Shown here: positions 412 through 56,036 of the stretch, piece after piece
Position numbering within the stretch: the stretch's first letter is position 1
How the letters are laid out: every line of letters starts with the position of its first letter
DNA from: Phycisphaerae bacterium
GTDB lineage: Bacteria > Planctomycetota > Phycisphaerae > UBA1845
DNA: 64,000 nucleotides
Assembly: GCA_029260035.1 (NCBI GenBank)
Contig: JAJDEA010000222.1
Span: 15,249 to 79,248 of the forward strand
Direction: 5' to 3'
Position numbers and translations under genes: made by a program
The notes under the pieces: model-generated
Databases searched by the model: none
The model's input: the letters and a program-made list of their open reading frames with translations, nothing else
What the model was told of the DNA's origin: nothing

Positions 412-2508
412 ATGATTTCCAGCAGCCAGACAAAAGCCAGCACTGCGCGAGGGCGAAAGAGCACAGCGCTACCGGTCTTGCCGCTGCAAAAAAAGCGGAA
501 CTACAAGCGATGGCGTGCGATCTCTTTGTCCCTCGTCTATCTTGTTTTTGCGATTCACATCATTCACTGGAAGATCACCGGCAAGACGTTGGCACCGCTC
601 GAACTCAACGAGGTCATGTACACATTGGAGCTTGGGATCATTACGGCAGGCTTCCTTTTCATGGGCTTGCTGGTCGCAGGCACGGCGATTTTCGGCAGGT
701 TCTTTTGTTCCTGGGCTTGTCACATTATGGTGTTGCAGGACTTCTGTGCATACCTCCTTCGCAAAATCGGGATTCACGCAAAGCCTATTCGGTCCAGAGT
801 CTTGCTCTGGGTTCCCCCATTGACGGCTCTGTATATGTTTGTTTGGCCTCAAGTGCTTAGAATGTGGCACAGTCAAGCCTTTCCGACTTTCCATCTCGCA
901 AGCGACGCCGACGGCTGGGCGTCTTTCGCGACAACAAATTTTTGGCGTAACCTGCCCGGCCCCTGGGTGATCGCGGCTACGTTTGCTATTTGCGGATTCG
1001 CTATCGTTTATCTGATGGGCTCTCGCACGTTCTGCACTTTTGTTTGTCCCTATGGAGCGGTGTTCGCGCTGGCGGATCGTTTCGCACCTGGGCGCATCAA
1101 AGTGAACGATGCGTGCCAACAATGCGCCCGCTGCACTGCGGTATGCACCAGCGGTGTTCGTGTGCATGAAGAAGTGAAACTTCACGGCATGGTTGTAAAC
1201 TCAGCCTGCATGAAGGACCTGGACTGCGTGAGCGTCTGTCCGCAAAACGCGCTACAATACGGACTGGCAAAACCCGCAGTCTTCAGCGCAAGCACTCGCG
1301 CTAGTGGCAGCCGTTTGCTATCCCATTTTTCGATCGCTGAAGAAATCCTGCTGTCAGCGGTGTTCCTGGTCGTGCTATTTTCTTTCCGAGGCCTTTACGG
1401 TCAAATCCCTTTTCTTCTGTCGCTCGCACTCGGAGCCATACTTGGCTACTTGGCAGTCTTAACGGCAAGGCTCGTGACACGCCCTGCCGTATCTTTGTCA
1501 AAACATCACCTAAAGCAAACCGGCCGATTGACCGGACTCGGTGTTGGGTTCGCCCTATTTTCGTGCCTGTTGACGATATTGGTAACTCACAGCGCATTTG
1601 TAAGGCTTCACGAGTATTCCGGACTGCGCAGCTGGCAGGTTTGGCGGCAAACGGAATCAGAAGATGAACGACATGGGCTCGCCGAAACGATTACCCAGCG
1701 CCTTGATGTTGCGAACCGCTGGAGTCTTATTCACAATCCACGCGTCACGCGTGCGCTCTTGCAATGCTCACTCGACCTAAAGCGATTTGACGACGCAGGT
1801 ATCTATGCTCACCAGTTTCTTCAGAGATTTCCAAGCGATTCGCAAGCTCAGTTGCATCTTGGCCAGGCACTCGTCGGCTTAGGGAAAAAGAAAGAGGCAG
1901 AGCAATATTTTCGAGCACTGATCGAAAATGGCCCCGGTTCGCCCTCAGGTCAAAGTGGAAACTTAGCGACAGCACACTACACGCTGGCTTCGCTACTTGT
2001 TGAGCGGGGTGAGTTCCGAAACTCAATAACATCTTTTGAAAAAGCCATCAAGTTGTCACCGGAACAAGGAACCTGGCTTGCGGCGCTTGGCAGCGCATAC
2101 GCCGAAATCGGTGAACTGGACAAAGCCGTGGCATGCCTGCAAACGGCGATCGAATTCGACGACACCCTCTCTCGCGCTCAATACAACCTCGGGACGATTC
2201 TTGCCATACAGGGCAAACTCGAACCCGCTATCGAAAGCTACAAAGATGCACTGCGCAATGAACCGAATGATCCGGAAGTGCTCAACAACCTTGGCTTGGC
2301 GTTATTGCGGGCAGGTGATCTCAATCAATCCCAATACTACCTTGAACGAGCCTTGGCGCTAGCCCCGGAAAACGCCGATACCCATTTCAACCTTGGTAGA
2401 CTGTTCACAATGCTGAGCGACTTGGCCCGAGCAAACCGCCATTTCACGGAAGCAGTTCGCATCAATCCTCGCTACGAACGGTTATTGATTTCGGGGCAAG
2501 GCCATTAG
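412..2508 (+). CDS. NapH/MauN-like 4Fe-4S polyferredoxin membrane protein fused to a C-terminal TPR array
   Basis: 698-aa ORF with an ATG start. The multi-TM N-terminal half carries Cys clusters (CSWAC, CTFVCPYG) and ferredoxin motifs CQQCARCTAVC (CxxCxxCxxxC) and CMKDLDCVSVCP. The C-terminal ~300 aa are TPR repeats (AHYTLASLLVERGEF, AQYNLGTILAIQGKL, LNNLGLALLRAGDL, HFNLGRLF). Confidence 0.85.
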   Translation: MISSSQTKASTARGRKSTALPVLPLQKKRNYKRWRAISLSLVYLVFAIHIIHWKITGKTLAPLELNEVMYTLELGIITAGFLFMGLLVAGTAIFGRFFCSWACHIMVLQDFCAYLLRKIGIHAKPIRSRVLLWVPPLTALYMFVWPQVLRMWHSQAFPTFHLASDADGWASFATTNFWRNLPGPWVIAATFAICGFAIVYLMGSRTFCTFVCPYGAVFALADRFAPGRIKVNDACQQCARCTAVCTSGVRVHEEVKLHGMVVNSACMKDLDCVSVCPQNALQYGLAKPAVFSASTRASGSRLLSHFSIAEEILLSAVFLVVLFSFRGLYGQIPFLLSLALGAILGYLAVLTARLVTRPAVSLSKHHLKQTGRLTGLGVGFALFSCLLTILVTHSAFVRLHEYSGLRSWQVWRQTESEDERHGLAETITQRLDVANRWSLIHNPRVTRALLQCSLDLKRFDDAGIYAHQFLQRFPSDSQAQLHLGQALVGLGKKKEAEQYFRALIENGPGSPSGQSGNLATAHYTLASLLVERGEFRNSITSFEKAIKLSPEQGTWLAALGSAYAEIGELDKAVACLQTAIEFDDTLSRAQYNLGTILAIQGKLEPAIESYKDALRNEPNDPEVLNNLGLALLRAGDLNQSQYYLERALALAPENADTHFNLGRLFTMLSDLARANRHFTEAVRINPRYERLLISGQGH

Positions 2509-38277: not shown

Positions 38278-39108
38278 ATGGACTCAACTCAGACGCTTGA
38301 TATCAAGGTAGTTTATAGTGCAACGAAAGGCGCCAGCCCCAGAAAACCGGTGTCTGTTTCGCCTGCTGGAGGTTCGCCGCGCTGGCTCGGGGCGCTTGGT
38401 TTGTCCGCCATGGTTGTGGCAGCAAGTCTGTGTTTCGCCGCCTGGTGGCGCGTTGATACGGAAATTCGTCTCATATGGATGTTCAAAACGCCAGTTCAAG
38501 GCCTCAATCCGGACTCCGCATCCAAGCTGTTTGAAGATTCTCTGACAGCGGGAAATGCACATCAAGCAAGACCCGAAAATCCTCAAGCAAACCCCTCAAG
38601 CGAACCAAGAATTGTCGGCGTCACGGCACGCAATGTGATTGTTGGAACCGGAGTAGTTTGGCTGGCTGTCGTGACGATCGCCTGCTGCGCACTTACATTT
38701 GCTGCGGGAACAGTAGCTGGCAGGAATCTTTCCGGACTCACTCGAGGCGGCTTAGCGTGTGCCGCCATGGCGTGCCTTGCTGGTATGTGCTGGATAGGCT
38801 TTGGCATTTGGCAGGACCACAAATGGGGCTATGAGCCGAGGACTATGCGCATTGGCATGTCGTCACTGGTAGTGTTGTTTGCCGTATTCGGAGCTGCGGT
38901 GGGCAACCCTACACAAAAAAAATGGCGCACCGCATCGCTGGCTCTCATCGCTTCCGCAGTGGCCAGCATCCTGGCACTCTATCTTGGCAAGGAAACCGGC
39001 GCAATCAAGCCTGAATATGCAACACTCACGGTTCTGGTTACGGTGTTCGTAGCCCAATCGTTTTATGGCTGGATCCTCTGGCCAATCGCATCCCGCGTTC
39101 GATCTTAA
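38278..39108 (+). CDS. polytopic membrane protein of unknown function
   Basis: 276-aa ORF with an ATG start and ~6 TM helices. No recognisable motif. Confidence 0.55.
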   Translation: MDSTQTLDIKVVYSATKGASPRKPVSVSPAGGSPRWLGALGLSAMVVAASLCFAAWWRVDTEIRLIWMFKTPVQGLNPDSASKLFEDSLTAGNAHQARPENPQANPSSEPRIVGVTARNVIVGTGVVWLAVVTIACCALTFAAGTVAGRNLSGLTRGGLACAAMACLAGMCWIGFGIWQDHKWGYEPRTMRIGMSSLVVLFAVFGAAVGNPTQKKWRTASLALIASAVASILALYLGKETGAIKPEYATLTVLVTVFVAQSFYGWILWPIASRVRS

Positions 39109-39136
39109 AGCGTCAGCCTCTGGAGAGAAGTCGTCC

Positions 39137-39685
39137 ATGGCGTACATACCCTATAAAACAAGGGAAGAAGCGTCCGACGCACTTCGCGCGATGTACGATC
39201 GCTACGCAGACCGGAACGGCCAAGTAGATAACATTCTCCGCATTCACGGCCAAAATCCACCCAGCATGGAAGCTCACTTCGACCTCTATCGAGTTCTGAT
39301 GCGCGGCCGGTCTGAACTTACCAAAACTCAACGTGAAATGATCGCCGTCGTCGTATCCCGCATCAACGAATGTCATTACTGACTGCAACATCACGGAGCG
39401 GGGCTCCTTAAACTTACCAAAGATCAGGAGTTGGTTGAATCACTCAAGTGCGGAGAACAAACCCCATCGGTTTCAGAAGCTGATCGTGCGATGCTCGATT
39501 ATGCCGCAAAGCTGACGCTTGAGCCGGCTTCAATAAACAAAGAAGATGTCGAGTCGCTGGCACGTGCAGGATTTACGGATTCAGCCATCCTCGACATATG
39601 CCAGGTCACAGCCTATTTCGCCTTTGTCAATCGACTCGCCGACGGTTTGGGCGTAGAACTTGAAGAAGACGGCCTAACAGGCTAA
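39137..39685 (+). CDS. AhpD/carboxymuconolactone-decarboxylase (CMD) family peroxidase-related protein, probable selenoprotein (in-frame TGA 39380-39382 read as Sec)
   Basis: The ORF-track pieces 39065-39382 and 39431-39685 are in the same frame, separated only by TGA. The read-through sequence is ...VVSRINECHY-U-LQHHGAGL..., which is the family redox motif CxxCxxxH with the second Cys replaced by TGA. The hairpin GGAGC-GGG-GCTCC starts 12 nt after the TGA. ATG 39137 has GGAGAG upstream. Confidence 0.65.
39395..39407 (+). promoter_or_regulatory. candidate bacterial SECIS-like hairpin
   Basis: GGAGC (39395-39399) pairs with GCTCC (39403-39407), with a GGG loop. The G-rich apical loop lies ~18 nt downstream of UGA. 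The stem is short. Confidence 0.35.
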
Positions 39686-39737
39686 GGCAGGCCCTGTTTT
39701 TCGGGGCGATCAAACTTCACCTCTTGGGTTAATCACT

Positions 39738-41837
39738 TTAGCGCGGAAATGCACCGACAACTCCGCCGTCTACCGGCAAGGTCGCACCGGTAGTTGGTGT
39801 AGCGTTGCTGGCGAAGAAAACCACCGCGTTGCCGACGTGGTGACCTTGCACTTTTGCCTTTAACAGGTTTCTACTTTGGTAATACTCCGGCAAGGCCTCC
39901 ACCGACAAGTCCCTGCTTTGCGCTCGATCAGGGCCAACGTCTTGCCACAAGCCGGATGGAATCGACTTGTCGCCAAAAATGGCATCAGCGTTAATCATGT
40001 TGACACGAATACCGAAAGGTGCCAGCTCCATCGCGGCTACCTTACCAAGCTGATGCCCCGCTGCCTTGGATGCACTATATGCAGCAAAATCCTTACCCGG
40101 CGCGAAGACGTTCTTGCTAGCATTGACAATAACATGCCCGCCAAGCCCCTGCCGTTTCATAATGCGCGTTCCTTCACGCATGAAGAGCAAGTATCCGGTA
40201 GTATTGATCTCCATTACACGGCGGAATTCGGTCACATCCATCATGTCGATTGAAGAAACGTGGGCAATCCCCGCATTACAAACTGCAACATCAACGCCGC
40301 CGAACGCACGGACGATATCCTGAAACCCTCGCTTGACGCTGGATTCATCTGTCACATCCATGACAACGCCCATTGCGAGGTTTGCTCCGGCTTTCTTGTT
40401 CACAATTTCAACGGTATGGCTGATCCGCGTTTCGTCCAAATCCGTTACGGCTACATGAGCACCCGCCTGAGCACAGACACACGCCACAGCTGCGCCAATT
40501 GCACCAGCTCCCCCGCTGATTGCTACGACCTGTCCTGCCAATGGCAAGGCATCAATTGACTTGATCTTCTTTCGTTGTAGCGCGCGACATTCCATGTCAA
40601 CTAGATGATCCATGGGCAAAGAGCGATACTCGCCGATCAGCATAGCATCCGCTTTGACTCGAAGACTTTGCTCAACGACATCCGCAGTAATCCCGGCGTC
40701 TTTCCTGCTGTTGCCCCAGCAAAACACACCCGCCCCAGGCAGTATCACCACTCTTGGCATTGCGGAGTCATTCGGGTCGGCTTCTGTCGATCGAAGCAAT
40801 TGCGCCTTGTGATGCTCGCAATAATCGCGAATTCCTTGCTCAAGCTGGCAGCGCAAGGCATCGTTGTCGTCCCAATTGGGGGCATCAATATAGAGCCAAT
40901 TCGGCCCCGTGCGAATAACATGATCGCCGGTCAACGCGCCGGACGAAGCAATCTCTTGAGCTTCCCGGCTATTTACTATTGCCATTATTTCGGCACTATG
41001 TCGCCAATCGAATATTTTGCGTAGGTGGGGCTGATCTTCGTCGCTTGATTTTTCTGCGAGTAGTCCACGAAGAATCGGTGCAACGCGATCTGCAAGTTCT
41101 TCAGGAGAATCATCAAACTTGGCGGTTGCAACAATTGAACGACCGTTTTTGCGCTTCCGAATAAAATCCTCACAGGCAGTAACAAGCGAGACATGATTCT
41201 CGTAGGACGTCTTCGCGTCCTCGCCGAACGTCACAAGGCCGTGATGAAGCAGCACAATGCCTTCTATGATCGGGTTTGACTCGTAGGCGTCGCTAACAAT
41301 TCTAGCCAGCTCGAAGCCGGGCTTTACATACGGCAAAATGGCTACGCGATCTCCCAACGCTTCGGCAATCAATTGCTCGCCGTTTGGTCGATTCGTAAGG
41401 GTCAGCACTGCGTCTGCATGGGAATGATCTATGAATCGCGAGGGAAGAAAGGCATGCAACAGTGTTTCGATTGATGGCGTCGGGCCTGCTGAATCGCACA
41501 AGCTTTTGCGAAACTCGTTCACCATCGCGTCATCGACGACGGATTCCAATTGTCGCATTTGACGCAAAGGCGCCAATTCCAGAGCAGGGAGATCATCCAT
41601 CCCGAGCGAAGCCAGGTCCGCCCCGCTCGCTTTGACGTAAACAACTTCTATAAACTCACGATACAGGGAGCGAAGAGTGCCTTTGATCGAGACGTTACCC
41701 CCCCCATGGAGAACCAAGGTTGGTTCTTGCCCGATCAATCGGGCCGTGTAAAGACGATCGGCCATACCCTGCCCATAAGCGTCACCTATATGGCATTTTA
41801 ATTCTTCCAAGCCTTTTTCCGACCAGAGGGATTTCAT
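39738..41837 (-). CDS. bifunctional class II aldolase (rhamnulose-1-phosphate aldolase-like) / short-chain dehydrogenase
   Basis: 699 aa. The N-terminal half is a class II aldolase/adducin-like domain. The C-terminal half is an SDR with the Rossmann motif ISGGAGAIG and catalytic YSASKAA (YxxxK). Confidence 0.9.
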   Translation of the reverse strand: MKSLWSEKGLEELKCHIGDAYGQGMADRLYTARLIGQEPTLVLHGGGNVSIKGTLRSLYREFIEVVYVKASGADLASLGMDDLPALELAPLRQMRQLESVVDDAMVNEFRKSLCDSAGPTPSIETLLHAFLPSRFIDHSHADAVLTLTNRPNGEQLIAEALGDRVAILPYVKPGFELARIVSDAYESNPIIEGIVLLHHGLVTFGEDAKTSYENHVSLVTACEDFIRKRKNGRSIVATAKFDDSPEELADRVAPILRGLLAEKSSDEDQPHLRKIFDWRHSAEIMAIVNSREAQEIASSGALTGDHVIRTGPNWLYIDAPNWDDNDALRCQLEQGIRDYCEHHKAQLLRSTEADPNDSAMPRVVILPGAGVFCWGNSRKDAGITADVVEQSLRVKADAMLIGEYRSLPMDHLVDMECRALQRKKIKSIDALPLAGQVVAISGGAGAIGAAVACVCAQAGAHVAVTDLDETRISHTVEIVNKKAGANLAMGVVMDVTDESSVKRGFQDIVRAFGGVDVAVCNAGIAHVSSIDMMDVTEFRRVMEINTTGYLLFMREGTRIMKRQGLGGHVIVNASKNVFAPGKDFAAYSASKAAGHQLGKVAAMELAPFGIRVNMINADAIFGDKSIPSGLWQDVGPDRAQSRDLSVEALPEYYQSRNLLKAKVQGHHVGNAVVFFASNATPTTGATLPVDGGVVGAFPR

Positions 41838-42130
41838 GGCTGTTCTGGCAAAACAAGTTTGAAGGGACGAACCTCTACGTTTGAAAAGACTCCGCCCAAG
41901 ACGTAAGGGTCGCGATTGACGATTTCACGGGCCTCTGTCAGATCAGCTGCATCGAAAACAATGACAGCCCCGACGGATCGTTCGTCGTTGTCATCGCGGA
42001 TTGGTCCGGCCAGTTCGATTCGACCCGTTTCGTTAAGATTCGAGACGTGTTGAACGTGAGCGCTGCGATGTTCATTGCGGTGCTGAGCGCCGTCCGCACC
42101 ATCCCAGCCGATCATCACAAATGTAGGCAT
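41834..42130 (-). CDS. YciI family protein
   Basis: 98 aa from ATG 42130 (MPTFVMIGWDG...HRSAHVQHV...DPYVLGGVF) with the typical YciI pattern. Its stop overlaps the downstream start by 4 nt. Confidence 0.75.
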   Translation of the reverse strand: MPTFVMIGWDGADGAQHRNEHRSAHVQHVSNLNETGRIELAGPIRDDNDERSVGAVIVFDAADLTEAREIVNRDPYVLGGVFSNVEVRPFKLVLPEQP

Positions 42131-42188
42131 GCGTTGGGTGTCTCTCGAAATATTCCAGATACAACCTGAACGGAAGAACAAGAACTAT

Positions 42189-42971
42189 TTAACCTTTAAG
42201 CTCTTGAAACAGTTCCCAGGCCTCTGCATCTGACTTGCCTTCGTGAACGATGCTTCGAACCGTGCGAATCATGGAAACCGGCCATTTGGATTGGAAAATG
42301 TTCCGCCCCATATCAACGCCGACTGCTCCAGCGGAAATGGCACGATACGCCAACTCAATCGCAGCCCGTTCTTCGATTTTCTTGCCGCCGGCAATCACCA
42401 CAGGCACCGGACAGCTATTCACGACCTTCTCGAATTCTTCGCAATAGTAGGTTTTGACGACCTGGGCACCCAACTCAGCGGCAATACGACAAGCGAGCGA
42501 CAGGTATCGCGCATCGCGCGCCATTTCGCGTCCTACCGCAGTGACTGCCAAAATGGGGACACCATACTTCTGACCTCGATCGCAAAGTTTCGCCAGGTTT
42601 GTAAGTGATGTTCTTTCGCTCGCAGACCCAACAAAGATTGAAATCGCAAGACACGATGCGTTGAGACGCAGCGCATCCTCCATGGAAACCGTGAGGTCCT
42701 CGTTCGACAGGTCGTCTCGTAGAATACTCGTCCCGCCGGATACGCGTAGAACGATCGGCACGCGTCGTTGAGGATCAACGACATTTCGGAGTACGCCTCG
42801 AGTCAACATCAGCGAATCCGCATATTCGGCAAGTAACTCGATCGCTTCGCCAGGCCTTTCGAGTCCGGTCGTCGGCCCCTGAAAATAACCGTGATCTACC
42901 GCAAGCATCAGGCATCGACCCGTCTCAGGACGAATCAGGCCCGCCAGCCTGTTACGCATTCCCCAATCCAT
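42189..42971 (-). CDS. class I aldolase (DhnA/LsrF/FbaB family)
   Basis: 260 aa with LMLAVDHGYFQGPTTGLE, a probable Schiff-base Lys in QVVKTYY, and GVDMGRNIFQ. Confidence 0.8.
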   Translation of the reverse strand: MDWGMRNRLAGLIRPETGRCLMLAVDHGYFQGPTTGLERPGEAIELLAEYADSLMLTRGVLRNVVDPQRRVPIVLRVSGGTSILRDDLSNEDLTVSMEDALRLNASCLAISIFVGSASERTSLTNLAKLCDRGQKYGVPILAVTAVGREMARDARYLSLACRIAAELGAQVVKTYYCEEFEKVVNSCPVPVVIAGGKKIEERAAIELAYRAISAGAVGVDMGRNIFQSKWPVSMIRTVRSIVHEGKSDAEAWELFQELKG

Positions 42972-48122: not shown

Positions 48123-49136
48123 GTGTTTAAGATAGACATCCACACGCACATTCTTCCTGAAAATTGGCCCGACCTGCGCGAGCGCTACGGGTACGGCGGG
48201 TTCATTCGCCTTGAACACCACAAGCCATGTTGCGCACGCATGTTCAAGGACGACGAATTTTTTCGTGAGATACAGGACAATTGCTGGTCGCCGACGCGTC
48301 GGATCGAAGAGTGCGACGGCGCCGGTGTTCACGTACAAGTGCTTTCGACGGTACCCGTCATGTTCAGCTATTGGGCGAAACCGGACGACGCCCACGATCT
48401 GGCGAAATTATTGAACGATCATATTGCCGAAGTCGTTCGTCAATACCCAAAACGGTTTGTCGGGCTTGCCACGATTCCCATGCAATCACCCAAGCTCGCG
48501 ATTCAGGAGATGGAACGCTGCGTCAACGAACTTGGACTCTCCGGCGTGCAAATCGGCACGCACGTCAATGGCTGTAATCTGGACGACGATAAGATATTCC
48601 CCATTCTCCAAGCTGCCGAACAGTTGGGCGCTGCGGTGTTCGTGCATCCGTGGGATATGCTAGCTAAAGATCGCATGTCAAAATATTGGCATAGTTGGCT
48701 TGTCGGTATGCCGGCTGAAACCGCCCTCGCGATCAGTTCGCTAATGTTTGCGGGCGTATTCGATAAACTACCCAAGCTGCGCATCTGTTTCGCTCATGGC
48801 GGCGGCTCATTTCCGGGCACGATTGGACGATTGCAGCATGGTTTCGACGTTAGGCCTGACTTGTGCGCAACTGACACGAAAACGTCCCCTCGCGATTGGA
48901 TGGGGCGTTTTTATGTGGATTCATTGGTCCATGATTCGGATGCTCTGGCTTATCTGGTGAAACTCGTGGGAAAGGAAAAAGTAGCGCTTGGATCGGATTA
49001 TCCGTTCCCATTGGGCGAGGCTGTACCCGGCAAGCTGATCGAATCGATGGAAAAGTTCTCAGCAGAAACGAAGCAAAGGCTGTTAGCCGGGTCGGCTATG
49101 GAGTTTCTCGATCTCGATCAAAATCGGTTTCTGTAG
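48123..49136 (+). CDS. 2-amino-3-carboxymuconate-6-semialdehyde decarboxylase (amidohydrolase_2 family)
   Basis: [16 protein letters not shown]-terminus with [15 protein letters not shown] and [13 protein letters not shown] start at 48123. Confidence 0.85.
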
Positions 49137-49169
49137 GATTCAATCTGCTACGTTCGGGCCGAGCTTTTT

Positions 49170-50486
49170 ATGACGACAAACCATACTAACTCTCCCGCTG
49201 ACTCTGACGTTTCTTTTCGCGAAGACGAGGCGTTTGCGATCAAGCTGGATGCGGATGATCCGTTGGCTCACTATCGCGCTCAGTTTCACATTCCGAAACA
49301 ATCAAACGGGGAAGACGTAATTTACTTTGCCGGGAACTCGCTGGGATTACAACCTCGAACCGTTCGGGATTTAATTGGCCAGGAATTGACTGATTGGGCT
49401 AAACTCGGCGTGGACGGGCATTTCGATAGCACCAGGCCTTGGTACTCATATCATGAGATTTTTCGCGATACGGGCGCGAGGCTGGTTGGCGCAAAGCCCG
49501 GCGAAGTCGTCATGATGAACAGCCTGACGATCAATCTGCACCTTATGATGACGACGTTTTTCCGCCCAACGAAAGAACGATTCAAGATCATGATGCAGTC
49601 GCCAGCATTTCCGTCGGACACATACGCCGTGAAGTCGCAGCTTGCCTTTCATGGATTGGACCCTGCAGAGGCGCTAATCATCCTGAAGCCTCGCGAAGAT
49701 GAGCACACGATTCGACTTGAAGATATTGAGCAAACGCTAGCCGAACAGGGCGATAAGATTGCACTTGTCCTTTTTGAAGGAGTCAATTATTTCACGGGTC
49801 AACTCTTCGAAATAGAAAAGATAACGAATCTGGTAAAGCAACATGGATGCGTCATGGGCTGGGATTTGGCGCACGCAGCTGGCAATGTGCCACTTAAATT
49901 GCACCAATGGGACGTCGATTTCGCTGTATGGTGCAATTACAAATATCTTAACGCCGGCCCTGGCGCCGTGGCGGGTTGTTTCGTTCACGAAAAAAATAGC
50001 AAGAACCTGGACCTGCATCGGCTGGCGGGTTGGTGGGGGAACGACCCCAACACACGTTTCCGAATGCACCTTCAGCCTGAATTCGTTCCGCGTCCGGGAG
50101 CAGAGGGCTGGCAGGTAAGCAATCCACCCATTCTCGCGTTAGCGCCAGTAAAAGCATCCATCGATATCTTTGATGAAGTGGGTATGTCGCCACTCCGGCA
50201 GAAATCAACTCAAATGACTGACTACCTGGCATATCTGATTGGCCTGCTTTCAGCCAATCGATTCGAGATCATCACGCCACAGCCAGCAAGTGTTCGAGGG
50301 TGCCAGCTTTCGATCCTGGCCCATGAACGGCCAAGAGAGCTGCACAACGCATTGAATTCAAAGGGTGTTGTATGCGATTTTCGTGAACCAAATGTCATCC
50401 GCGTGGCTCCAGTTCCACTATACAACACATACCACGACGCATGGCGCTTCGCACAGGTATTGGCAAGGCATGTAGAGGCGGGGTAG
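49170..50486 (+). CDS. kynU: kynureninase
   Basis: 438 aa, PLP fold type I, with the conserved blocks IYFAGNSLGLQP, WDLAHAAGN and the PLP-Lys region WCNYKYLNAGPG. Confidence 0.9.
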   Translation: MTTNHTNSPADSDVSFREDEAFAIKLDADDPLAHYRAQFHIPKQSNGEDVIYFAGNSLGLQPRTVRDLIGQELTDWAKLGVDGHFDSTRPWYSYHEIFRDTGARLVGAKPGEVVMMNSLTINLHLMMTTFFRPTKERFKIMMQSPAFPSDTYAVKSQLAFHGLDPAEALIILKPREDEHTIRLEDIEQTLAEQGDKIALVLFEGVNYFTGQLFEIEKITNLVKQHGCVMGWDLAHAAGNVPLKLHQWDVDFAVWCNYKYLNAGPGAVAGCFVHEKNSKNLDLHRLAGWWGNDPNTRFRMHLQPEFVPRPGAEGWQVSNPPILALAPVKASIDIFDEVGMSPLRQKSTQMTDYLAYLIGLLSANRFEIITPQPASVRGCQLSILAHERPRELHNALNSKGVVCDFREPNVIRVAPVPLYNTYHDAWRFAQVLARHVEAG

Positions 50487-50507: not shown

Positions 50508-52655
50508 CTATTCTCGCATCAGTCGATTGACAAACCGTGCAAGTCGCCTCGCGACGCGTTTGGCAACTGGTACGGCTCCACCTTGAAGCAAAACAGAGCC
50601 AGTCATGCCATGGCGAAGGTCGGAAGATTGGGCATCGGGCAGTTCGATAACGATCTCAAAATATGGCTCCGCCGCTTCGTGCGTGTTGGGATCCACTACG
50701 ATATGGCCGCCCGCCAATTGCGTGAGGGATGTCAAACGCACCGTGCGTGACCCGGCTGGGGAAACACTGACTACAATGCCCTCGTATATGTTTGTCGTAT
50801 TCGCTACTGTTCGGAACTTGGCGAAACCACCAATTGTTGGCTTGCTTTGGACATATTGATCTTCCGTAAGAAAAGCATGAACCTGCCAAGTGCCTGATGC
50901 AATCGTCGCAATGGGGTCACCCTCGTTAAGGTAAAGCCCTCGATCTTGCGGCTTCAAGCTGCTGATAATTCTACCTTCGCAAGGTGATTGCACAGCAAGG
51001 TTATCCAGTTTCAATTGGCTGTCTTTCAGGGCTTTTTCCCAGGAATTCGCCCGGTACGCTTCCTGTTGCGCCCTTTCCGGTTCGGTGCCGCGAAAGGCAT
51101 CTCGTCGAATCTGTGTCGCACGAAGATTGGCGCGTGCAAAAGCCACGTCTTGCTTAAGCGTGTCGTTACTGAGCGTCACCAAGGTTTGATCGATACTCGC
51201 ATCATCGCCGAATTGGGACGAAACACCTTCCACAAAGCCCGGCACTTTTGTACGAACGATTGTTTCATTCTCAGTCGTCAACCTTCCGCTGGCGTGAACG
51301 CGCGATGGCAAAGGCACAAATGTCAACAAGCAAGGCACGATAAGGAGGGCAACTACTCCTAACGCGATCGCTCTTTTTCGCACATGCGCGGTTTCCTCCG
51401 CGCGCCACAGGTAACCAATCGTTCTACGCAGCGTCGAAATCACCGTACTTCCGAAATAGAACACCGCCAATGACATACCCAGCAAGAACATTTTGGACGC
51501 CAGGATCGCCGAAATGGCGATCAGCAAAGAGATGCGATAAAGGAAAGCACAGATACCAAAGGAGAGTAGGAGCCAACGGAGTCTCCGGCTGGCGATTTCC
51601 GGCCCGGAGCGAATCCCGAGGAGCCATCGTTTCGCCTTAGCAGTTACATACTGGGCTGATTTTGCGCGAAGATTGGGAACCTCTGTCAAATCGCTAAGTA
51701 TATAGTAACCGTCGTAGCGCATGAGCGGGTTGATGTTGAATAGGACAGTGATGATGCTAGCCAGGAAGATGACGTTGTAGGCTATGCTGTTGACCAATGA
51801 TGGGCCTGTGAACGCCCAAACCAACACCGCCATAGCAGCAGTAAAACTCTCGAAATACATTCCGCCGAAACAGACGATCAAACGATCGAGCTTGCGCGAA
51901 AACCCCCACGAAGCGGTCGCATCCATATATGCGCACGGGGTAAACATGATTAGGTACGCGCCCATTTCGGGCACATGTCCGCCATATTTCTTGCACGCAT
52001 ACGCATGGCCGAACTCGTGGAAGACTTTGAGTGCGATAAGCGTAATCCACATGAGTGCCAGATTTTGACTGGCCATGATACCATGCAACGGTTCGGAGAG
52101 TTCGTGCCATCGCCTAAACGCAACGAAGCCTGCGACACACATCAACATTAGCCAACAGATGAAAGCTGGCCTAGTGAACAATGGCCTTGCGTACTGAATA
52201 GTGCGGTCCAAAAACGCGTTTGGATTCCAAAGTGGAATGCGTATGAAGAGAAACCCCAGGAACTTTTGCTTTCGGCTGGCGCGTTCTCGGGCGCGATAGC
52301 GCTTGTATAGAAGCTTGTGATCTGAAATTGGCAAATGAAGAAGACCAAGCTTGTGAAGGCCCATCACGAACCGATAAAACTTCTCTTCGTCGGTCTCGCG
52401 TAGGATCTTCTTGTCAACGAGGTTTTGAAAATTTTGGCTCAGCGGTTTGTGATCATTTATATTGATCAATACTTGGTAGTTCGCGGGATCGAGACGCTGA
52501 CTTTCAAACGTCACCGGATCGCGAACGATGTAGGATGGCTCACCTCGAAAAACATGACGGCTAACCTCCAGGTCTTCGCGCAGCTTGACCTGAACCGACC
52601 CAAGTTGGCTGGCGAGAGATGAAGCGGCGGGCGAATTGGCGGCACTTACGGCCAT
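50508..52655 (-). CDS. site-2-protease (peptidase M50) family membrane metalloprotease fused to a C-terminal HlyD/MFP-like periplasmic domain
   Basis: Both S2P signatures are present: HEFGHA (HExxH, in a TM helix) and NINPLMRYDGYY (NxxPxxxxDG). Several further TM helices are followed by a ~280-aa barrel/lipoyl-like adaptor domain (GRIISSLKPQDRGLYLNEGDPIATI, GIVVSVSPAG). The start overlaps the upstream gene by 10 nt. Confidence 0.85.
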   Translation of the reverse strand: MAVSAANSPAASSLASQLGSVQVKLREDLEVSRHVFRGEPSYIVRDPVTFESQRLDPANYQVLININDHKPLSQNFQNLVDKKILRETDEEKFYRFVMGLHKLGLLHLPISDHKLLYKRYRARERASRKQKFLGFLFIRIPLWNPNAFLDRTIQYARPLFTRPAFICWLMLMCVAGFVAFRRWHELSEPLHGIMASQNLALMWITLIALKVFHEFGHAYACKKYGGHVPEMGAYLIMFTPCAYMDATASWGFSRKLDRLIVCFGGMYFESFTAAMAVLVWAFTGPSLVNSIAYNVIFLASIITVLFNINPLMRYDGYYILSDLTEVPNLRAKSAQYVTAKAKRWLLGIRSGPEIASRRLRWLLLSFGICAFLYRISLLIAISAILASKMFLLGMSLAVFYFGSTVISTLRRTIGYLWRAEETAHVRKRAIALGVVALLIVPCLLTFVPLPSRVHASGRLTTENETIVRTKVPGFVEGVSSQFGDDASIDQTLVTLSNDTLKQDVAFARANLRATQIRRDAFRGTEPERAQQEAYRANSWEKALKDSQLKLDNLAVQSPCEGRIISSLKPQDRGLYLNEGDPIATIASGTWQVHAFLTEDQYVQSKPTIGGFAKFRTVANTTNIYEGIVVSVSPAGSRTVRLTSLTQLAGGHIVVDPNTHEAAEPYFEIVIELPDAQSSDLRHGMTGSVLLQGGAVPVAKRVARRLARFVNRLMRE

Positions 52656-54589
52656 AGGTGCAACCTGATATAGTCAATTGCCCGGTGTAAGGTGATCCAC
52701 CAGACTCGGCGAGATCCCAATTCGAGTTTCGCTACACCCTCCATACCCGGTCGAAGCCAATCTTGCTCAGCGACGACATCCGCTTCCGCGATATAGACGT
52801 TGATTCCGTTGCGAATTTGAGCCTCGCCGAGAACGCGCGACATACTAAATGGCGTACTTAGCTCCGGTTTAGCAAATGCGGCGAAGCGGCCCGTAAGCTT
52901 CTCGTGCAAGTCCGCAGAACTATGTTCTGGAACCTGCACCTCTAGCGTCCAATGGTCAAGCGGTGCGACGGCAAAGAGCGTCTCGCCTCGCGCAACAACG
53001 CCGCCAATCCGCTGGCGAAGGTCGCCCGTGACGACAACACCGGCAATCGGCGAACGCACCGTAGCCTGCGCGATGCGCCGAGTGACTATATCGAGTTTCG
53101 CCTGAGTAAGAACTTGCTTGGCTCTGGCAAGTTGAACATCGATCGGTAAGTTCGAGGCTAATGCTCGATCCGTTTCTCGCTCCAATACCGCCAGCTCGGC
53201 TTGAAGTTCCACCTGTTGCTGATCCAGTTCTTTGTGATTCAACAGGCACAAAACCTGGCCCGCTTGAACGACTTCGCCTTCGACAATCGAAGCGGACTCA
53301 ACAAGGCCATCGAAAGGCATCGTAAGTTGCCGCAACTGGTGCGGCGTGACGACACATGGAACAGTCAATTCATAATTCATCGACCCGAAGAAGAAGCTTG
53401 CGGTCATAAGAAGCGCAACCGCAACCATGACTTTCAATCCCACGCGATCCGGATGTCTAACCAATGTCGCAAATCGCTTGATTCCGTCCGTAGCATGAGT
53501 GAGAAAGCTTCGACTGGCGCGCCGTGTTAGTTCCAGTGCAGGCGCGTAAGGCTCTACTTTGCTCTTGATATCGTCGAGTTGTCCTGGTTTGAATGGATCA
53601 CTCGCCGGGCGACGAAGGCTTAGAACAGCTATCGTGTGACCGTCTACCGCAAGCGGCATCGACGCGACCGCATCACCATGCGACGCAGAGTGCCATTGTT
53701 TGTGCAGGCGATAGCCGGATAACTTCTCGTCTGTCGCCCAATCGGTTCCCCGCTGATAGGTAATGAGAGCGCTCGCATCGAGGCATTCTTCCATAGCACC
53801 TCGAATCGCGGACACGCCCGGACTCTGCGATTTCACATTGTCAAACCCAGAGATAGAAATTATCCGAATTCTCTTACCCTGAACCAGCCCGAGGGCGACT
53901 TGCTCGCATTGGGCCTTTGTACAAAGATCGTTCGTCAGAGCAAACGCTAATTCTTCCACGGTCGTAAAGGACGCGGCGCGTGACAGTGTCCGGTGGTCGG
54001 TCTGACTGCCAGACGCACGACCTCCTGGTGAATTAGCGCTTGCCGTCGGTTGCGATCGTCCGAGGAACTCGGCACTAAACGACATGAGTCGCGCCAAACT
54101 TTCCAGTTGGTCAAGTTGACGACCCAGCTTGGCTTCATTCGTCGGAGCAATGACAAGCGCAACCGCACCGATTGCCGGGCCGGACGAATCGAAAACCGTA
54201 GCTGACAGGAACGCGACTTTCGTCGCTCCTGTCTTGGATTTGAGCAACTTCGCTCTGGATGTAGGCTCGGCCAGGGATTCCGTCAAGAACTGTTGTAAGC
54301 TGTTCTTCCAAAACTTCGGATCCGTCGGACCAGCGTGCCAATCGTCTTGAATGACCTCGGAAGCGTATCGCACATGCATCGCCGCGTACGGGCATACAAA
54401 GTGCTTGGCTATTACTTTCAGGCACGATTGAAGGAACTGAATGGGTGATACGCTCTTGCGCGCAAGAGAAACGATTTCGGCGTAAGAAGCTCCCTCACGC
54501 TGGGAGTCCGAAGCACTCGTCGAATTCTTGGATGACGATTTTTCCAACTTCGTTTGCACGGATCGTGTCACCTTCCAATCAAAGCCCAA
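52646..54589 (-). CDS. GAF-GAF-TM-HlyD/MFP fusion protein
   Basis: Two cytoplasmic GAF-like modules (~residues 50-175 and 200-350) are followed by one TM helix (VGLKVMVAVALLMTASFFFG). Then comes an MFP domain with a coiled-coil hairpin (QQQVELQAELAVLERETDRALA...LARAKQVLTQAKLDIV) and lipoyl/barrel segments (VRSPIAGVVVTGD). The apparent start is non-ATG (TTG 54589; alternatives GTG 54571 and 54559). Confidence 0.8.
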   Translation of the reverse strand: MGFDWKVTRSVQTKLEKSSSKNSTSASDSQREGASYAEIVSLARKSVSPIQFLQSCLKVIAKHFVCPYAAMHVRYASEVIQDDWHAGPTDPKFWKNSLQQFLTESLAEPTSRAKLLKSKTGATKVAFLSATVFDSSGPAIGAVALVIAPTNEAKLGRQLDQLESLARLMSFSAEFLGRSQPTASANSPGGRASGSQTDHRTLSRAASFTTVEELAFALTNDLCTKAQCEQVALGLVQGKRIRIISISGFDNVKSQSPGVSAIRGAMEECLDASALITYQRGTDWATDEKLSGYRLHKQWHSASHGDAVASMPLAVDGHTIAVLSLRRPASDPFKPGQLDDIKSKVEPYAPALELTRRASRSFLTHATDGIKRFATLVRHPDRVGLKVMVAVALLMTASFFFGSMNYELTVPCVVTPHQLRQLTMPFDGLVESASIVEGEVVQAGQVLCLLNHKELDQQQVELQAELAVLERETDRALASNLPIDVQLARAKQVLTQAKLDIVTRRIAQATVRSPIAGVVVTGDLRQRIGGVVARGETLFAVAPLDHWTLEVQVPEHSSADLHEKLTGRFAAFAKPELSTPFSMSRVLGEAQIRNGINVYIAEADVVAEQDWLRPGMEGVAKLELGSRRVWWITLHRAIDYIRLHLWP

Positions 54590-54597
54590 GTTCAGAG

Positions 54598-55029
54598 CTA
54601 TGACAAAATGCCGGATTCCTGTTCGGTCTGTACATTCTCTGGTAGACAGATCGGCTTGAAAAACGCGAAGCCGGCTTCAAATGCGTCTTCGCGAACAAGC
54701 CTGCATCGGACACACCGTGCAAAAGTCAAGGGTAATGCGAACGAGCTTTTGTCAAATTGCAAACGGAAAATATCACCAACTCCGACGGGAATCGGGAAAA
54801 GTCCGCTACAACCTCCTTGAGAAATGTCGCCCGTGACGCCTTGAACTTTGAACTTCAACATCTCGCTCGAATTACCGGCTTGCAGTACAACGCTGATCTT
54901 GATGGCTAATCGAAAGTGCGCGCGCTGTTGCCGAACTTCTTCCGCGGTGTTCTTACCAAGCTCTTGGAGAAGGTCAAAAGCCGAATCCGCATCAAGAGAT
55001 GTGTTAGGATTTTGAAAATCATCAAACAT
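54598..55029 (-). CDS. stand-alone PilZ domain protein (putative c-di-GMP receptor)
   Basis: Both PilZ signatures are intact: RAHFR (RxxxR) and DISQGG (D/NxSxxG), ~30 residues apart. 143 aa. It lies 5 nt and 8 nt from the flanking MFP genes. Confidence 0.8.
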   Translation of the reverse strand: MFDDFQNPNTSLDADSAFDLLQELGKNTAEEVRQQRAHFRLAIKISVVLQAGNSSEMLKFKVQGVTGDISQGGCSGLFPIPVGVGDIFRLQFDKSSFALPLTFARCVRCRLVREDAFEAGFAFFKPICLPENVQTEQESGILS

Positions 55030-55034
55030 TTCGT

Positions 55035-56036
55035 TTACTCACGATACCCTTTTGACTCATCTTTAGAATCTGTTGGACTACTCTTATGCTGCTGATTGGT
55101 TTGCTGTGCTTCAATGACACGAGACGACAAGTGGTCTCTCTCGCTTACACCTTGCTGAAAATCTACATATACCTTTAGACCGGCTATCCAACGGTCATCC
55201 CTATTGGGTATGGCTAGCTTCACGTTGAACGTTTGACTCGCCCCATCTGCAACCCGGTTAACCAACACAACTTCACCGGCACGGGTTTTCCAGCCTGAGC
55301 TGACTGGATTCACGCTGAGTATGTTTCCTGCGTGGATTTGAGTAGCAAGTGTCAATGGGCAGGCAAATGACACCACAAGCGGGTCGAGCTGAGCCACACG
55401 AACGACGCCTTCTCCTTGTTCGACGGGCTCGCCTTCTTCTTTGAAGACTTCAGCCACATAACCTGAAAAGGGGGCAGAGACAAGGTATTCCGCGAGCGCA
55501 TGCTGCTCACGTTGATAGATCCAGGAATCTACCGTATGGCGAAAATTGGCGAGGTCATATTCGATCTTGTTGATATCGCGTGCAGCAAGGGCGTCACTCA
55601 ATTCCTTGGACGAAGCAGAATCTCCGCCGTAAAGTTTCTCAAGCCGATCCCAATCACGCCTGGCCCGTTCCCATTTCGTCTTGGCCAGTTCAATAGCGAG
55701 CGTTGATTCTGCTACCGTTTTTGCTTTCTCAGTTTGGGCGCGCTGCACACGATCATCAAGAACGAATAGGATCTGCCCCTTTTCTATGCTGTCGCCTTCT
55801 TCGACGGCGATGTGGCTGATAAGCGTGGGTCTCGCCGCACCCAGCATCGCTTCACGAACAGGCATCGTAAGCCCGAAAACTCTGACCGCGGAATTCGACG
55901 CAGGCGTGGCGGTAACCGCTTGCTGAGCAGATGATGTTGATTCTCCGATTACAACGAAAGAGAGAATCAACACGACATACTGCCAGGCAATAGGTATCTT
56001 ACAGGTTGCTTTCTTGACGCGGGTTCCGTTCCGCAT
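55035..56036 (-). CDS. HlyD/RND-type membrane fusion (periplasmic adaptor) protein
   Basis: N-terminal TM/signal anchor, a lipoyl-like motif (ISHIAVEEGDSIEKGQILFVLD...VSAPFSGYVAEVFKEEGEPVEQGEGVVRV), a coiled-coil hairpin and a beta-barrel domain. Confidence 0.8.
   Translation of the reverse strand: MRNGTRVKKATCKIPIAWQYVVLILSFVVIGESTSSAQQAVTATPASNSAVRVFGLTMPVREAMLGAARPTLISHIAVEEGDSIEKGQILFVLDDRVQRAQTEKAKTVAESTLAIELAKTKWERARRDWDRLEKLYGGDSASSKELSDALAARDINKIEYDLANFRHTVDSWIYQREQHALAEYLVSAPFSGYVAEVFKEEGEPVEQGEGVVRVAQLDPLVVSFACPLTLATQIHAGNILSVNPVSSGWKTRAGEVVLVNRVADGASQTFNVKLAIPNRDDRWIAGLKVYVDFQQGVSERDHLSSRVIEAQQTNQQHKSSPTDSKDESKGYRE

Follow-up and report, generated by a model that had tools for sequence, protein, structure and literature searches.

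Does an in-frame TGA in the middle of a planctomycete gene end its translation, or does it encode selenocysteine (Sec)? The question is raised by positions 39137 to 39685 (+ strand) of a 64,000-nucleotide (nt) stretch of contig JAJDEA010000222.1 (assembly GCA_029260035.1, Phycisphaerae bacterium), which we refer to in its full length as the window. These positions were originally predicted to hold a selenoprotein gene of the AhpD/CMD type, with TGA in place of the second cysteine of a redox motif and, shortly downstream, a hairpin resembling a selenocysteine insertion sequence (SECIS). Comparison with related genes leads us to consider it very likely that this UGA, codon 82 of the gene, is a functional Sec codon, and the product of the locus is very probably one AhpD-like thiol/selenol oxidoreductase of 182 residues, with a CMD fold, from family TIGR01926.

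Translation of the window at this locus gives one frame of 182 sense codons, counting the UGA, followed by TAA. The TGA at 39380-39382 is the only stop within the frame, and there is no frameshift. The list of open reading frames (ORFs) cuts the gene into two pieces that share a frame, 39065..39382 and 39431..39685, and a start at the upstream ATG, 39065, would overlap with the gene before it (38278-39108). Around the UGA the peptide reads I-N-E-C79-H-Y-[UGA82]-L-Q-H85-H86, which corresponds to C-x-x-U-x-x-x-H. The original prediction joined the two ORF halves into one CMD protein of 182 codons, and both the translation and the match to TIGR01926 agree with this.

Family membership was assessed by profile searches of the joined protein, run with Cys in place of Sec. 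The protein scored 147.3 bits against TIGR01926 ("peroxidase-related enzyme," NCBIfam; cutoff, 81.8), with residues 3-174 aligned to profile positions 2-174 of 178, and it also scored above the cutoffs of the Pfam CMD domain (PF02627; 42.6 bits versus 23) and the AhpD core-domain model (TIGR00778; 42.8 bits versus 27.8). Among solved structures, the nearest are Cys-form "peroxidase-related" proteins, namely, 3c1l (E value, 9e-31), 2pfx, 6k40, 2oyo, and 2prr. The C-x-Y-C of 3c1l, 2pfx, and 6k40 is aligned with the C-H-Y-U of the window protein, and the segment ...REMIAV.VSS.N.C.YC...HGA of the solved structures aligns residue for residue, with its second Cys falling on the UGA. Two other families were tried and rejected. 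The strict AhpD subfamily (TIGR00777) gave 17.9 bits versus a cutoff of 191.95; the window protein is not a member of it but has the catalytic core in common, and the weak match places residues 57-105 on AhpD profile positions 108-157, with Glu67 at about position 118. NF041238 (AhpD_rel_CFYUT) gave 49.7 bits versus a cutoff of 175 and was matched at profile positions 152-337 of 357 only, so that membership in this family was also dismissed.

We compared the gene with 35 genomic loci taken from GTDB species representatives (L001-L035). All 31 loci encoding proteins of 45 to 66% identity have TGA at the aligned codon, and in each of them the frame runs on to the conserved C terminus. These loci come from Planctomycetota/Phycisphaerae, candidate division KSB1, Gemmatimonadota/Longimicrobiales, and Halanaerobiales/Halobacteroidaceae. 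TGC takes the place of TGA in four distant loci from Acidobacteriota (L032-L035; 32 to 35% identity). The window protein shares 41 to 64% identity with its relatives before the UGA and 51 to 67% after it; because the halves on both sides are equally conserved, there is no sign of a decaying pseudogene. The original prediction had named independent disruptions in close relatives as the mark of a true pseudogene, and none was found: TGA is followed by an intact downstream half in 31/31 loci from at least four phyla. Same-frame TGA junctions occur at two further places in the window (5107 and 17699, minus strand), but there the real genes begin with signal peptides after the TGA, and neither was retained as a candidate.

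A wider comparison used the 120 best homolog clusters in a collection of 5.8 billion proteins. In these clusters the UGA column is occupied by Cys (51 clusters), by "W" (40 clusters), or in a few cases by R, G, or L, and about 20 clusters are C-terminal fragments of about 100 residues that start directly after the UGA. Neither the N-terminal nor the C-terminal fragment of the window protein occurs in the collection as an exact match. The prediction that the TGA column is that of the second Cys of CxxC is borne out by the 51 Cys clusters, by the TGC codons of L032-L035, and by the Cys residues of 3c1l and 2pfx. One of the "W" clusters was read at the DNA level (L037:1056-1607; motif, C-H-Y-W-I-T-H-H), and its codon is TGA, which implies that the gene caller applied a code in which UGA is Trp. 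The 40 "W" clusters (P0002-P0030 etc.) appear to be selenoproteins hidden as seemingly full-length proteins. Two other sequences have AGA (Arg; L038:99-647, P0001) and GGA (Gly; L039:2671-3453, P0016) at the Sec codon, with the hairpin kept in both. Each of these codons is one base from TGA, through either sequencing error or real loss of Sec. The motif of P0016 is the nearest to that of the window protein (INECHYGLQHHGAAL).

The apical loop of a bacterial SECIS lies about 16 to 37 nt from the UGA, the range used in the bSECISearch model. The stem in the window begins 12 nt after the UGA, and the G residues of its loop are 18 to 20 nt after the A of the UGA, within that range; the position of the stem is identical in all 32 aligned sequences. 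The sequence of the hairpin, its 12-nt spacing, and the G loop about 18 nt downstream had all been part of the original prediction, and its coordinates are exact. The loop reads GGG (or CGGGG), with alignment column G34 invariant and G33 kept in 90% or more of the 32. A small apical loop with a conserved G is a criterion for bacterial SECIS elements (PMC1088965).

It is through comparative evidence only that the hairpin is convincing, and this evidence indicates conservation beyond what the protein requires. The 32 Sec-form sequences align without gaps, and their stem columns pair in 87% of cells, versus 25 to 47% when the partners are slid by 1 to 3 columns. The third stem pair is exchanged between A-U and G-U (22:10), and RNAalifold recovers the stem from the alignment. 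Synonymous codon choice is constrained at the same place. At the first Gly codon, 31/31 sequences have GGA or GGG, versus 48% GGR elsewhere in the same genes, the Ala codon is GCG in 29/31 versus a background of 36%, and the Leu codon is CTC or CTT in 30/32; the second Gly codon, the third base of which is in the loop, is unconstrained (third-base entropy, 1.76 bits). When all 45 conserved four-fold-degenerate codons of the gene are ranked by third-base entropy, the hairpin codons take ranks 1 to 3 (0.41, 0.78, and 0.87 bits), followed by a codon at 1.18 bits. The chance that three prespecified columns would occupy the three lowest ranks is about 1 in 14,000. Conserved pairing and synonymous constraint across relatives thus support the hairpin with SECIS geometry that had been proposed from the window alone.

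L003, a relative from Phycisphaerae, has exactly the hairpin of the window gene. Two Planctomycetota sequences that break the consensus still form a hairpin in a shifted register: L005:3250-3300 reads GGAGCA-GGUC-UGCUCC, and L004:3244-3294 reads CGC..CC-GGUCU-GG.GCG. The apical motif of L005, GCA-GGUC-UGC, resembles that of the Escherichia coli fdhF SECIS. Like that E. coli element, the window hairpin lies within the coding sequence, begins about 11 to 12 nt beyond the UGA, and carries G residues in its small apical loop, but it is much shorter (a 5-bp stem and a triloop), and the bulged U is not evident.

The peptide that follows the two His residues is almost fixed as GAGL in Sec forms and is variable in Cys forms (GASL, RESL, AEAL, SDAL, and others), which argues that the RNA constrains the protein. 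Two Cys forms, each a single sequence, can be compared at the hairpin itself: L040 encodes an identical HHGAGL peptide but with GGC and has lost the stem, and L041, with TGC at the Sec position, keeps a SECIS-like stem (ACGGAGC-GUC-GCUCCGU), consistent with a recent change from Sec to Cys. The L041 gene belongs to a planctomycetotal metagenome-assembled genome (GCA_043813895.1; L041:2253-5500), where it adjoins a gene for a pyridine-nucleotide disulfide oxidoreductase. On its other side are two divergent genes, one for a PF11823 Se/S-carrier-like protein and one for a class V aminotransferase (cysteine desulfurase/selenocysteine lyase-like), a neighborhood that hints at a link with selenium or sulfur trafficking.

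Several observations weigh against a working SECIS and active Sec decoding at this locus. The 61 nt at 39380-39440, folded alone, are no more stable than shuffled sequences (z = -0.2), and their minimum-free-energy structure favors a pairing other than the hairpin. At 5 bp and -7.2 kcal/mol, the window hairpin is minimal, and the two outer pairs of most Gemmatimonadota are absent from it. Stability does not discriminate between forms, the mean local hairpin energy being -7.1 kcal/mol for Sec forms versus -5.7 kcal/mol for Cys forms. Classical covariation is weak, with few compensatory double changes in the stem (3 cells); the hairpin is supported mostly by constraint at synonymous sites, among sequences that are not phylogenetically independent. 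A search of the hairpin region with RNA models, put forward as a check in the original prediction, came back negative: a scan of 39300-39520 against Rfam 15 at an E value of ≤10 returned no match. The missing match carries little weight because bacterial SECIS elements in coding regions are short and diverse.

The machinery for Sec insertion also failed to appear nearby. SelA, SelB, and SelD were not found in the window (30 ORFs searched against NCBIfam and 10 against Pfam), and neither was tRNA-Sec, as ARAGORN reported only a tRNA-Arg there; nor was tRNA-Sec found in 32 related loci. The absence of sel genes from the window is uninformative, since the genes of the Sec machinery are few and rarely lie within any given 64 kb. 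Sec machinery is present in several Planctomycetes, with 1/3 genomes lacking it (PMC4807772), and Sec use by the source organism is plausible. A neighbor gene common across phyla that would point to a redox partner was not found among 34 loci.

The missing sel genes and tRNA-Sec, together with the patchiness of the Sec trait in Planctomycetes, would fit a relic, in which the TGA and hairpin of a Sec-using ancestor have outlasted a machinery since lost; translation would then terminate at codon 82 and leave a pseudogene with no function. Such a history is very unlikely in our view: the downstream half is intact and conserved like the upstream half, the hairpin is the same as in L003, and the 64 kb around the gene are too small a sample for the absence of sel genes to count. 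A sequencing or assembly error, which would turn an ordinary Cys-form peroxidase-related enzyme into an apparent selenoprotein, would require only one base, TGA being one step from TGC and TGT, and single-base variants (AGA and GGA) do occur at this codon on some metagenome contigs. Against it, the Logan assembly of run SRR15505515 is identical to window positions 38884-42498, with 0 mismatches over 3615 bp, though the assemblies may share reads; moreover, TGA recurs in 31 relatives, and the gene, unlike the Cys form L040, has the synonymous codons that form the SECIS. We give an error almost no chance of being the explanation.

The many database homologs with W at the UGA column could be taken to mean that UGA is read as Trp, or as Gly or Cys, through a reassigned code or near-cognate readthrough, but the sole "W" cluster checked in DNA proved to be a TGA translated by a gene caller. 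TGA is also the normal terminator of 8/28 family-supported genes in the window, which end at homolog-like lengths (e.g., AceE at 899 amino acids versus about 898), and this argues that UGA is not globally reassigned in the organism. Trp or Gly at the catalytic Cys site would abolish CxxC chemistry, and a reassigned codon would need no conserved hairpin downstream; we regard this explanation as highly improbable. Hardly any credence can be given to two small genes whose products, an N-terminal one of 81 residues and a C-terminal one of about 84, would form a split CMD-fold enzyme. Separate halves are indeed what the ORF list and metagenome gene callers give, but no start is conserved for the second half (callers take any ATG, GTG, or TTG after the UGA), no ribosome-binding site is evident, the stretch from codon 82 to TTG 39431, with the active-site H-H pair and some of the fold, would be missing from both products, and the frame is kept across the UGA in all aligned relatives.

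A more specific proposal is that the hairpin is a family-specific "minimal SECIS" (ACGGAG-CGGGN-CUCCGU; here, GGAGC-GGG-GCUCC) that horizontal transfer of the Sec form has spread to four or more phyla and that dictates G-A-G-L in the protein, and that the planctomycete is an unrecorded Sec user. We consider this combination rather doubtful, and if true, it would leave the understanding of Sec decoding unchanged.

If UGA82 is read as Sec, as we prefer, the standard bacterial pathway leads us to infer that the hairpin would recruit SelB-GTP with Sec-tRNA(Sec) at this codon and that Sec would be inserted there instead of termination. The redox center would comprise Cys79, Sec82 in place of the second CxxC Cys, His86, and Glu67, the last with a putative role in proton relay. 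We speculate that the selenolate of Sec82 attacks an oxidized substrate, which by analogy with AhpD could be a peroxide or the oxidized Cys of a peroxiredoxin-type partner, that Cys79 resolves the intermediate to form an intramolecular selenenyl-sulfide, and that an upstream reductant would re-reduce it. Glu67, Cys79, Sec82, and His86 presumably correspond to about the positions of Glu118, Cys130, Cys133, and His137 of Mycobacterium tuberculosis AhpD, and the roles given to them here follow that analogy. The original prediction placed the TGA at the "resolving/catalytic" Cys; the catalytic half of that description fits, but the resolving half probably does not, as the second Cys would by this analogy be the attacking nucleophile.

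Sec-containing AhpD-like proteins were already known, as the original prediction stated. An AhpD-like CxxU selenoprotein family (COG2128) with 27 sequences and a predicted SECIS was reported from the Sargasso Sea in 2005 by Zhang, Fomenko, and Gladyshev (PMC1088965); "AhpD-like 1," with 299 sequences, ranked fourth in abundance among prokaryotic selenoprotein families in the Global Ocean Sampling (GOS) data in 2008 (PMC2398784); and a 2026 review gives the AhpD-like family as modeled by TIGR01926, with a GenBank accession as an example (PMC13188914). AhpD-like is also a browsable family of BSepDB (PMC13326102). The expectation that automated annotation would miss the gene is borne out only in part: NCBIfam has selenoprotein-aware models, and the TIGR01926 example of the 2026 review is a GenBank accession (PMC13188914). 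Like the described family, the window gene passes TIGR01926, has CxxU with Sec at the second Cys and a G-loop stem-loop directly after the UGA, and has widespread Cys-form homologs. Nothing substantive sets it apart, the window copy coming from an uncultured planctomycete related to Phycisphaerae and being at most 66% identical to the GTDB representatives retrieved; AceE of the window is about 78% identical to proteins of Planctomycetes/Phycisphaerae metagenome-assembled genomes. This selenoprotein family has been known for about 20 years, and the gene adds an ordinary member to it and nothing new in principle.

The Cys-form peroxidase-related structures share full-length homology with the window protein (E values of 1e-22 to 1e-30), including the segment R-E-M-I-A...S-x-x-N-x-C-x-Y-C-x-x-H-G; these proteins differ from it in having Cys at the UGA/Sec position and a variable peptide after H-H where the window protein has the fixed G-A-G-L. 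PDB entry 6k40 is probably DR1765 of Deinococcus radiodurans. DR1765 is the nearest studied homolog; its deletion causes sensitivity to H2O2, and the cysteines of its CxxC are required for complementation (PMC8945050). With M. tuberculosis AhpD (TIGR00777) the window protein shares the core of the CMD/AhpD fold, and E...C-x-x-C-x-x-x-H maps to Glu67/Cys79/Sec82/His86. M. tuberculosis AhpD is the lipoamide-dependent reductant of AhpC. The window protein differs from it in failing TIGR00777 and in having neither an ahpC nor a lipoamide-enzyme gene adjacent; by analogy, it would work like an AhpD-type redox protein without being a strict AhpD. NF041238, the "hypothetical protein 1" of the Sargasso Sea, has a CMD-type domain and C-x-Y-U in common with the window protein, and the Gemmatimonadota relatives of the window gene have C-F-Y-U. 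NF041238 is nonetheless a separate, longer family (357-position model), of which the window protein matches the C-terminal half only.

Table 1. Features of the AhpD-like selenoprotein gene, in window coordinates
Feature	Position	Strand	Basis
Shine-Dalgarno-like GGAGAG	39122..39127	+	9 nt before ATG 39137; read from the sequence
Start codon ATG	39137	+	agrees with homolog N termini (MAYIPY...)
Coding sequence, AhpD-like (TIGR01926) predicted selenoprotein, 182 residues with Sec82	39137..39685	+	translation, TIGR01926, Pfam CMD, 31 TGA relatives 45-66% identical over full length
Glu67 codon GAA, putative proton-relay glutamate, 12 residues before Cys79	39335..39337	+	R-E-M/L-I kept in 36/36 aligned sequences
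Cys79 codon TGT, first residue of C-x-x-U	39371..39373	+	invariant in the alignment; matches first Cys of CxxC in 3c1l and 2pfx
UGA, proposed Sec82 codon	39380..39382	+	TGA in L001-L031 and L037; TGC in L032-L035, L040, and L041
His86 codon CAC (U+4), H of C-x-x-U-x-x-x-H	39392..39394	+	H-H kept in every Sec and Cys form examined
SECIS-like hairpin GGAGC-GGG-GCUCC, 5-bp stem, G-rich apical loop	39395..39407	+	encoded by G87-A88-G89-L90
True stop TAA	39683..39685	+	homologs terminate a few residues from the ...GLGVELE motif

The gene that ends 28 nt before the selenoprotein gene (38278-39108, +) encodes a predicted multipass membrane protein of 276 amino acids without a Pfam match. The two genes may be cotranscribed, and this neighbor was not seen beside the selenoprotein gene in other phyla. 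On its other side, the selenoprotein gene converges with a set of genes that resembles a sugar-catabolism cluster (39738-42971, -) and encodes a bifunctional aldolase/short-chain dehydrogenase (760 bits, NF006194), a YciI-like protein, and an LsrF-type 3-hydroxy-5-phosphonooxypentane-2,4-dione thiolase-like aldolase (401 bits). No gene for a peroxiredoxin, thioredoxin reductase, or lipoamide enzyme and no ahpC is adjacent to the selenoprotein gene in the window, and a scan for promoter and terminator consensus sequences around the gene gave nothing relevant. Among Longimicrobiales/Gemmatimonadota, a tRNA-Gly(GCC)/tRNA-Cys(GCA) pair or a lone tRNA-Cys lies upstream of the AhpD-like gene (L020:2741-2964, L025:302-509, L027:2654-2849, and L010:127-199), ending about 150 nt or less from the gene start in L020 and L027. 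This placement is probably clade synteny.

Three regions farther away in the window also drew our attention. A protein of 715 amino acids encoded within 50508-56036 (-) is like the HExxH intramembrane metalloprotease of daptide biosynthesis (NF041824; 145.7 bits, under the cutoff of 300) and has an HlyD/RND-adaptor-like C terminus. It is followed by adaptor-like genes (52646-54589 and 55035-56036), and the whole may be a cluster for peptide maturation and export. The gene at 412-2508 (+) encodes an unusual fusion of 698 amino acids, in which a NapH/MauN-type ferredoxin-like membrane domain (residues ~90-285) is joined to a long C-terminal TPR array. At 48123-50486 (+), an Amidohydro_2-family gene is followed by one for kynureninase (462 bits, TIGR01814), which suggests a catabolic pair for tryptophan/kynurenine.

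For annotation, these results mean that the locus should be recorded as one selenoprotein of 182 residues (transl_except Sec at codon 82) rather than as a pseudogene or a pair of fragments. Trp at the Sec position, seen in about a third of the closest "full-length" clusters and traced to a translated UGA in the one read as DNA, can mislead analyses of motifs and active sites in this family. The gene would serve as a textbook case of a coding-region SECIS that limits synonymous sites and the encoded peptide alike. Its presence also predicts that the uncultured source planctomycete has selA, selB, selC, and selD and a need for selenium.

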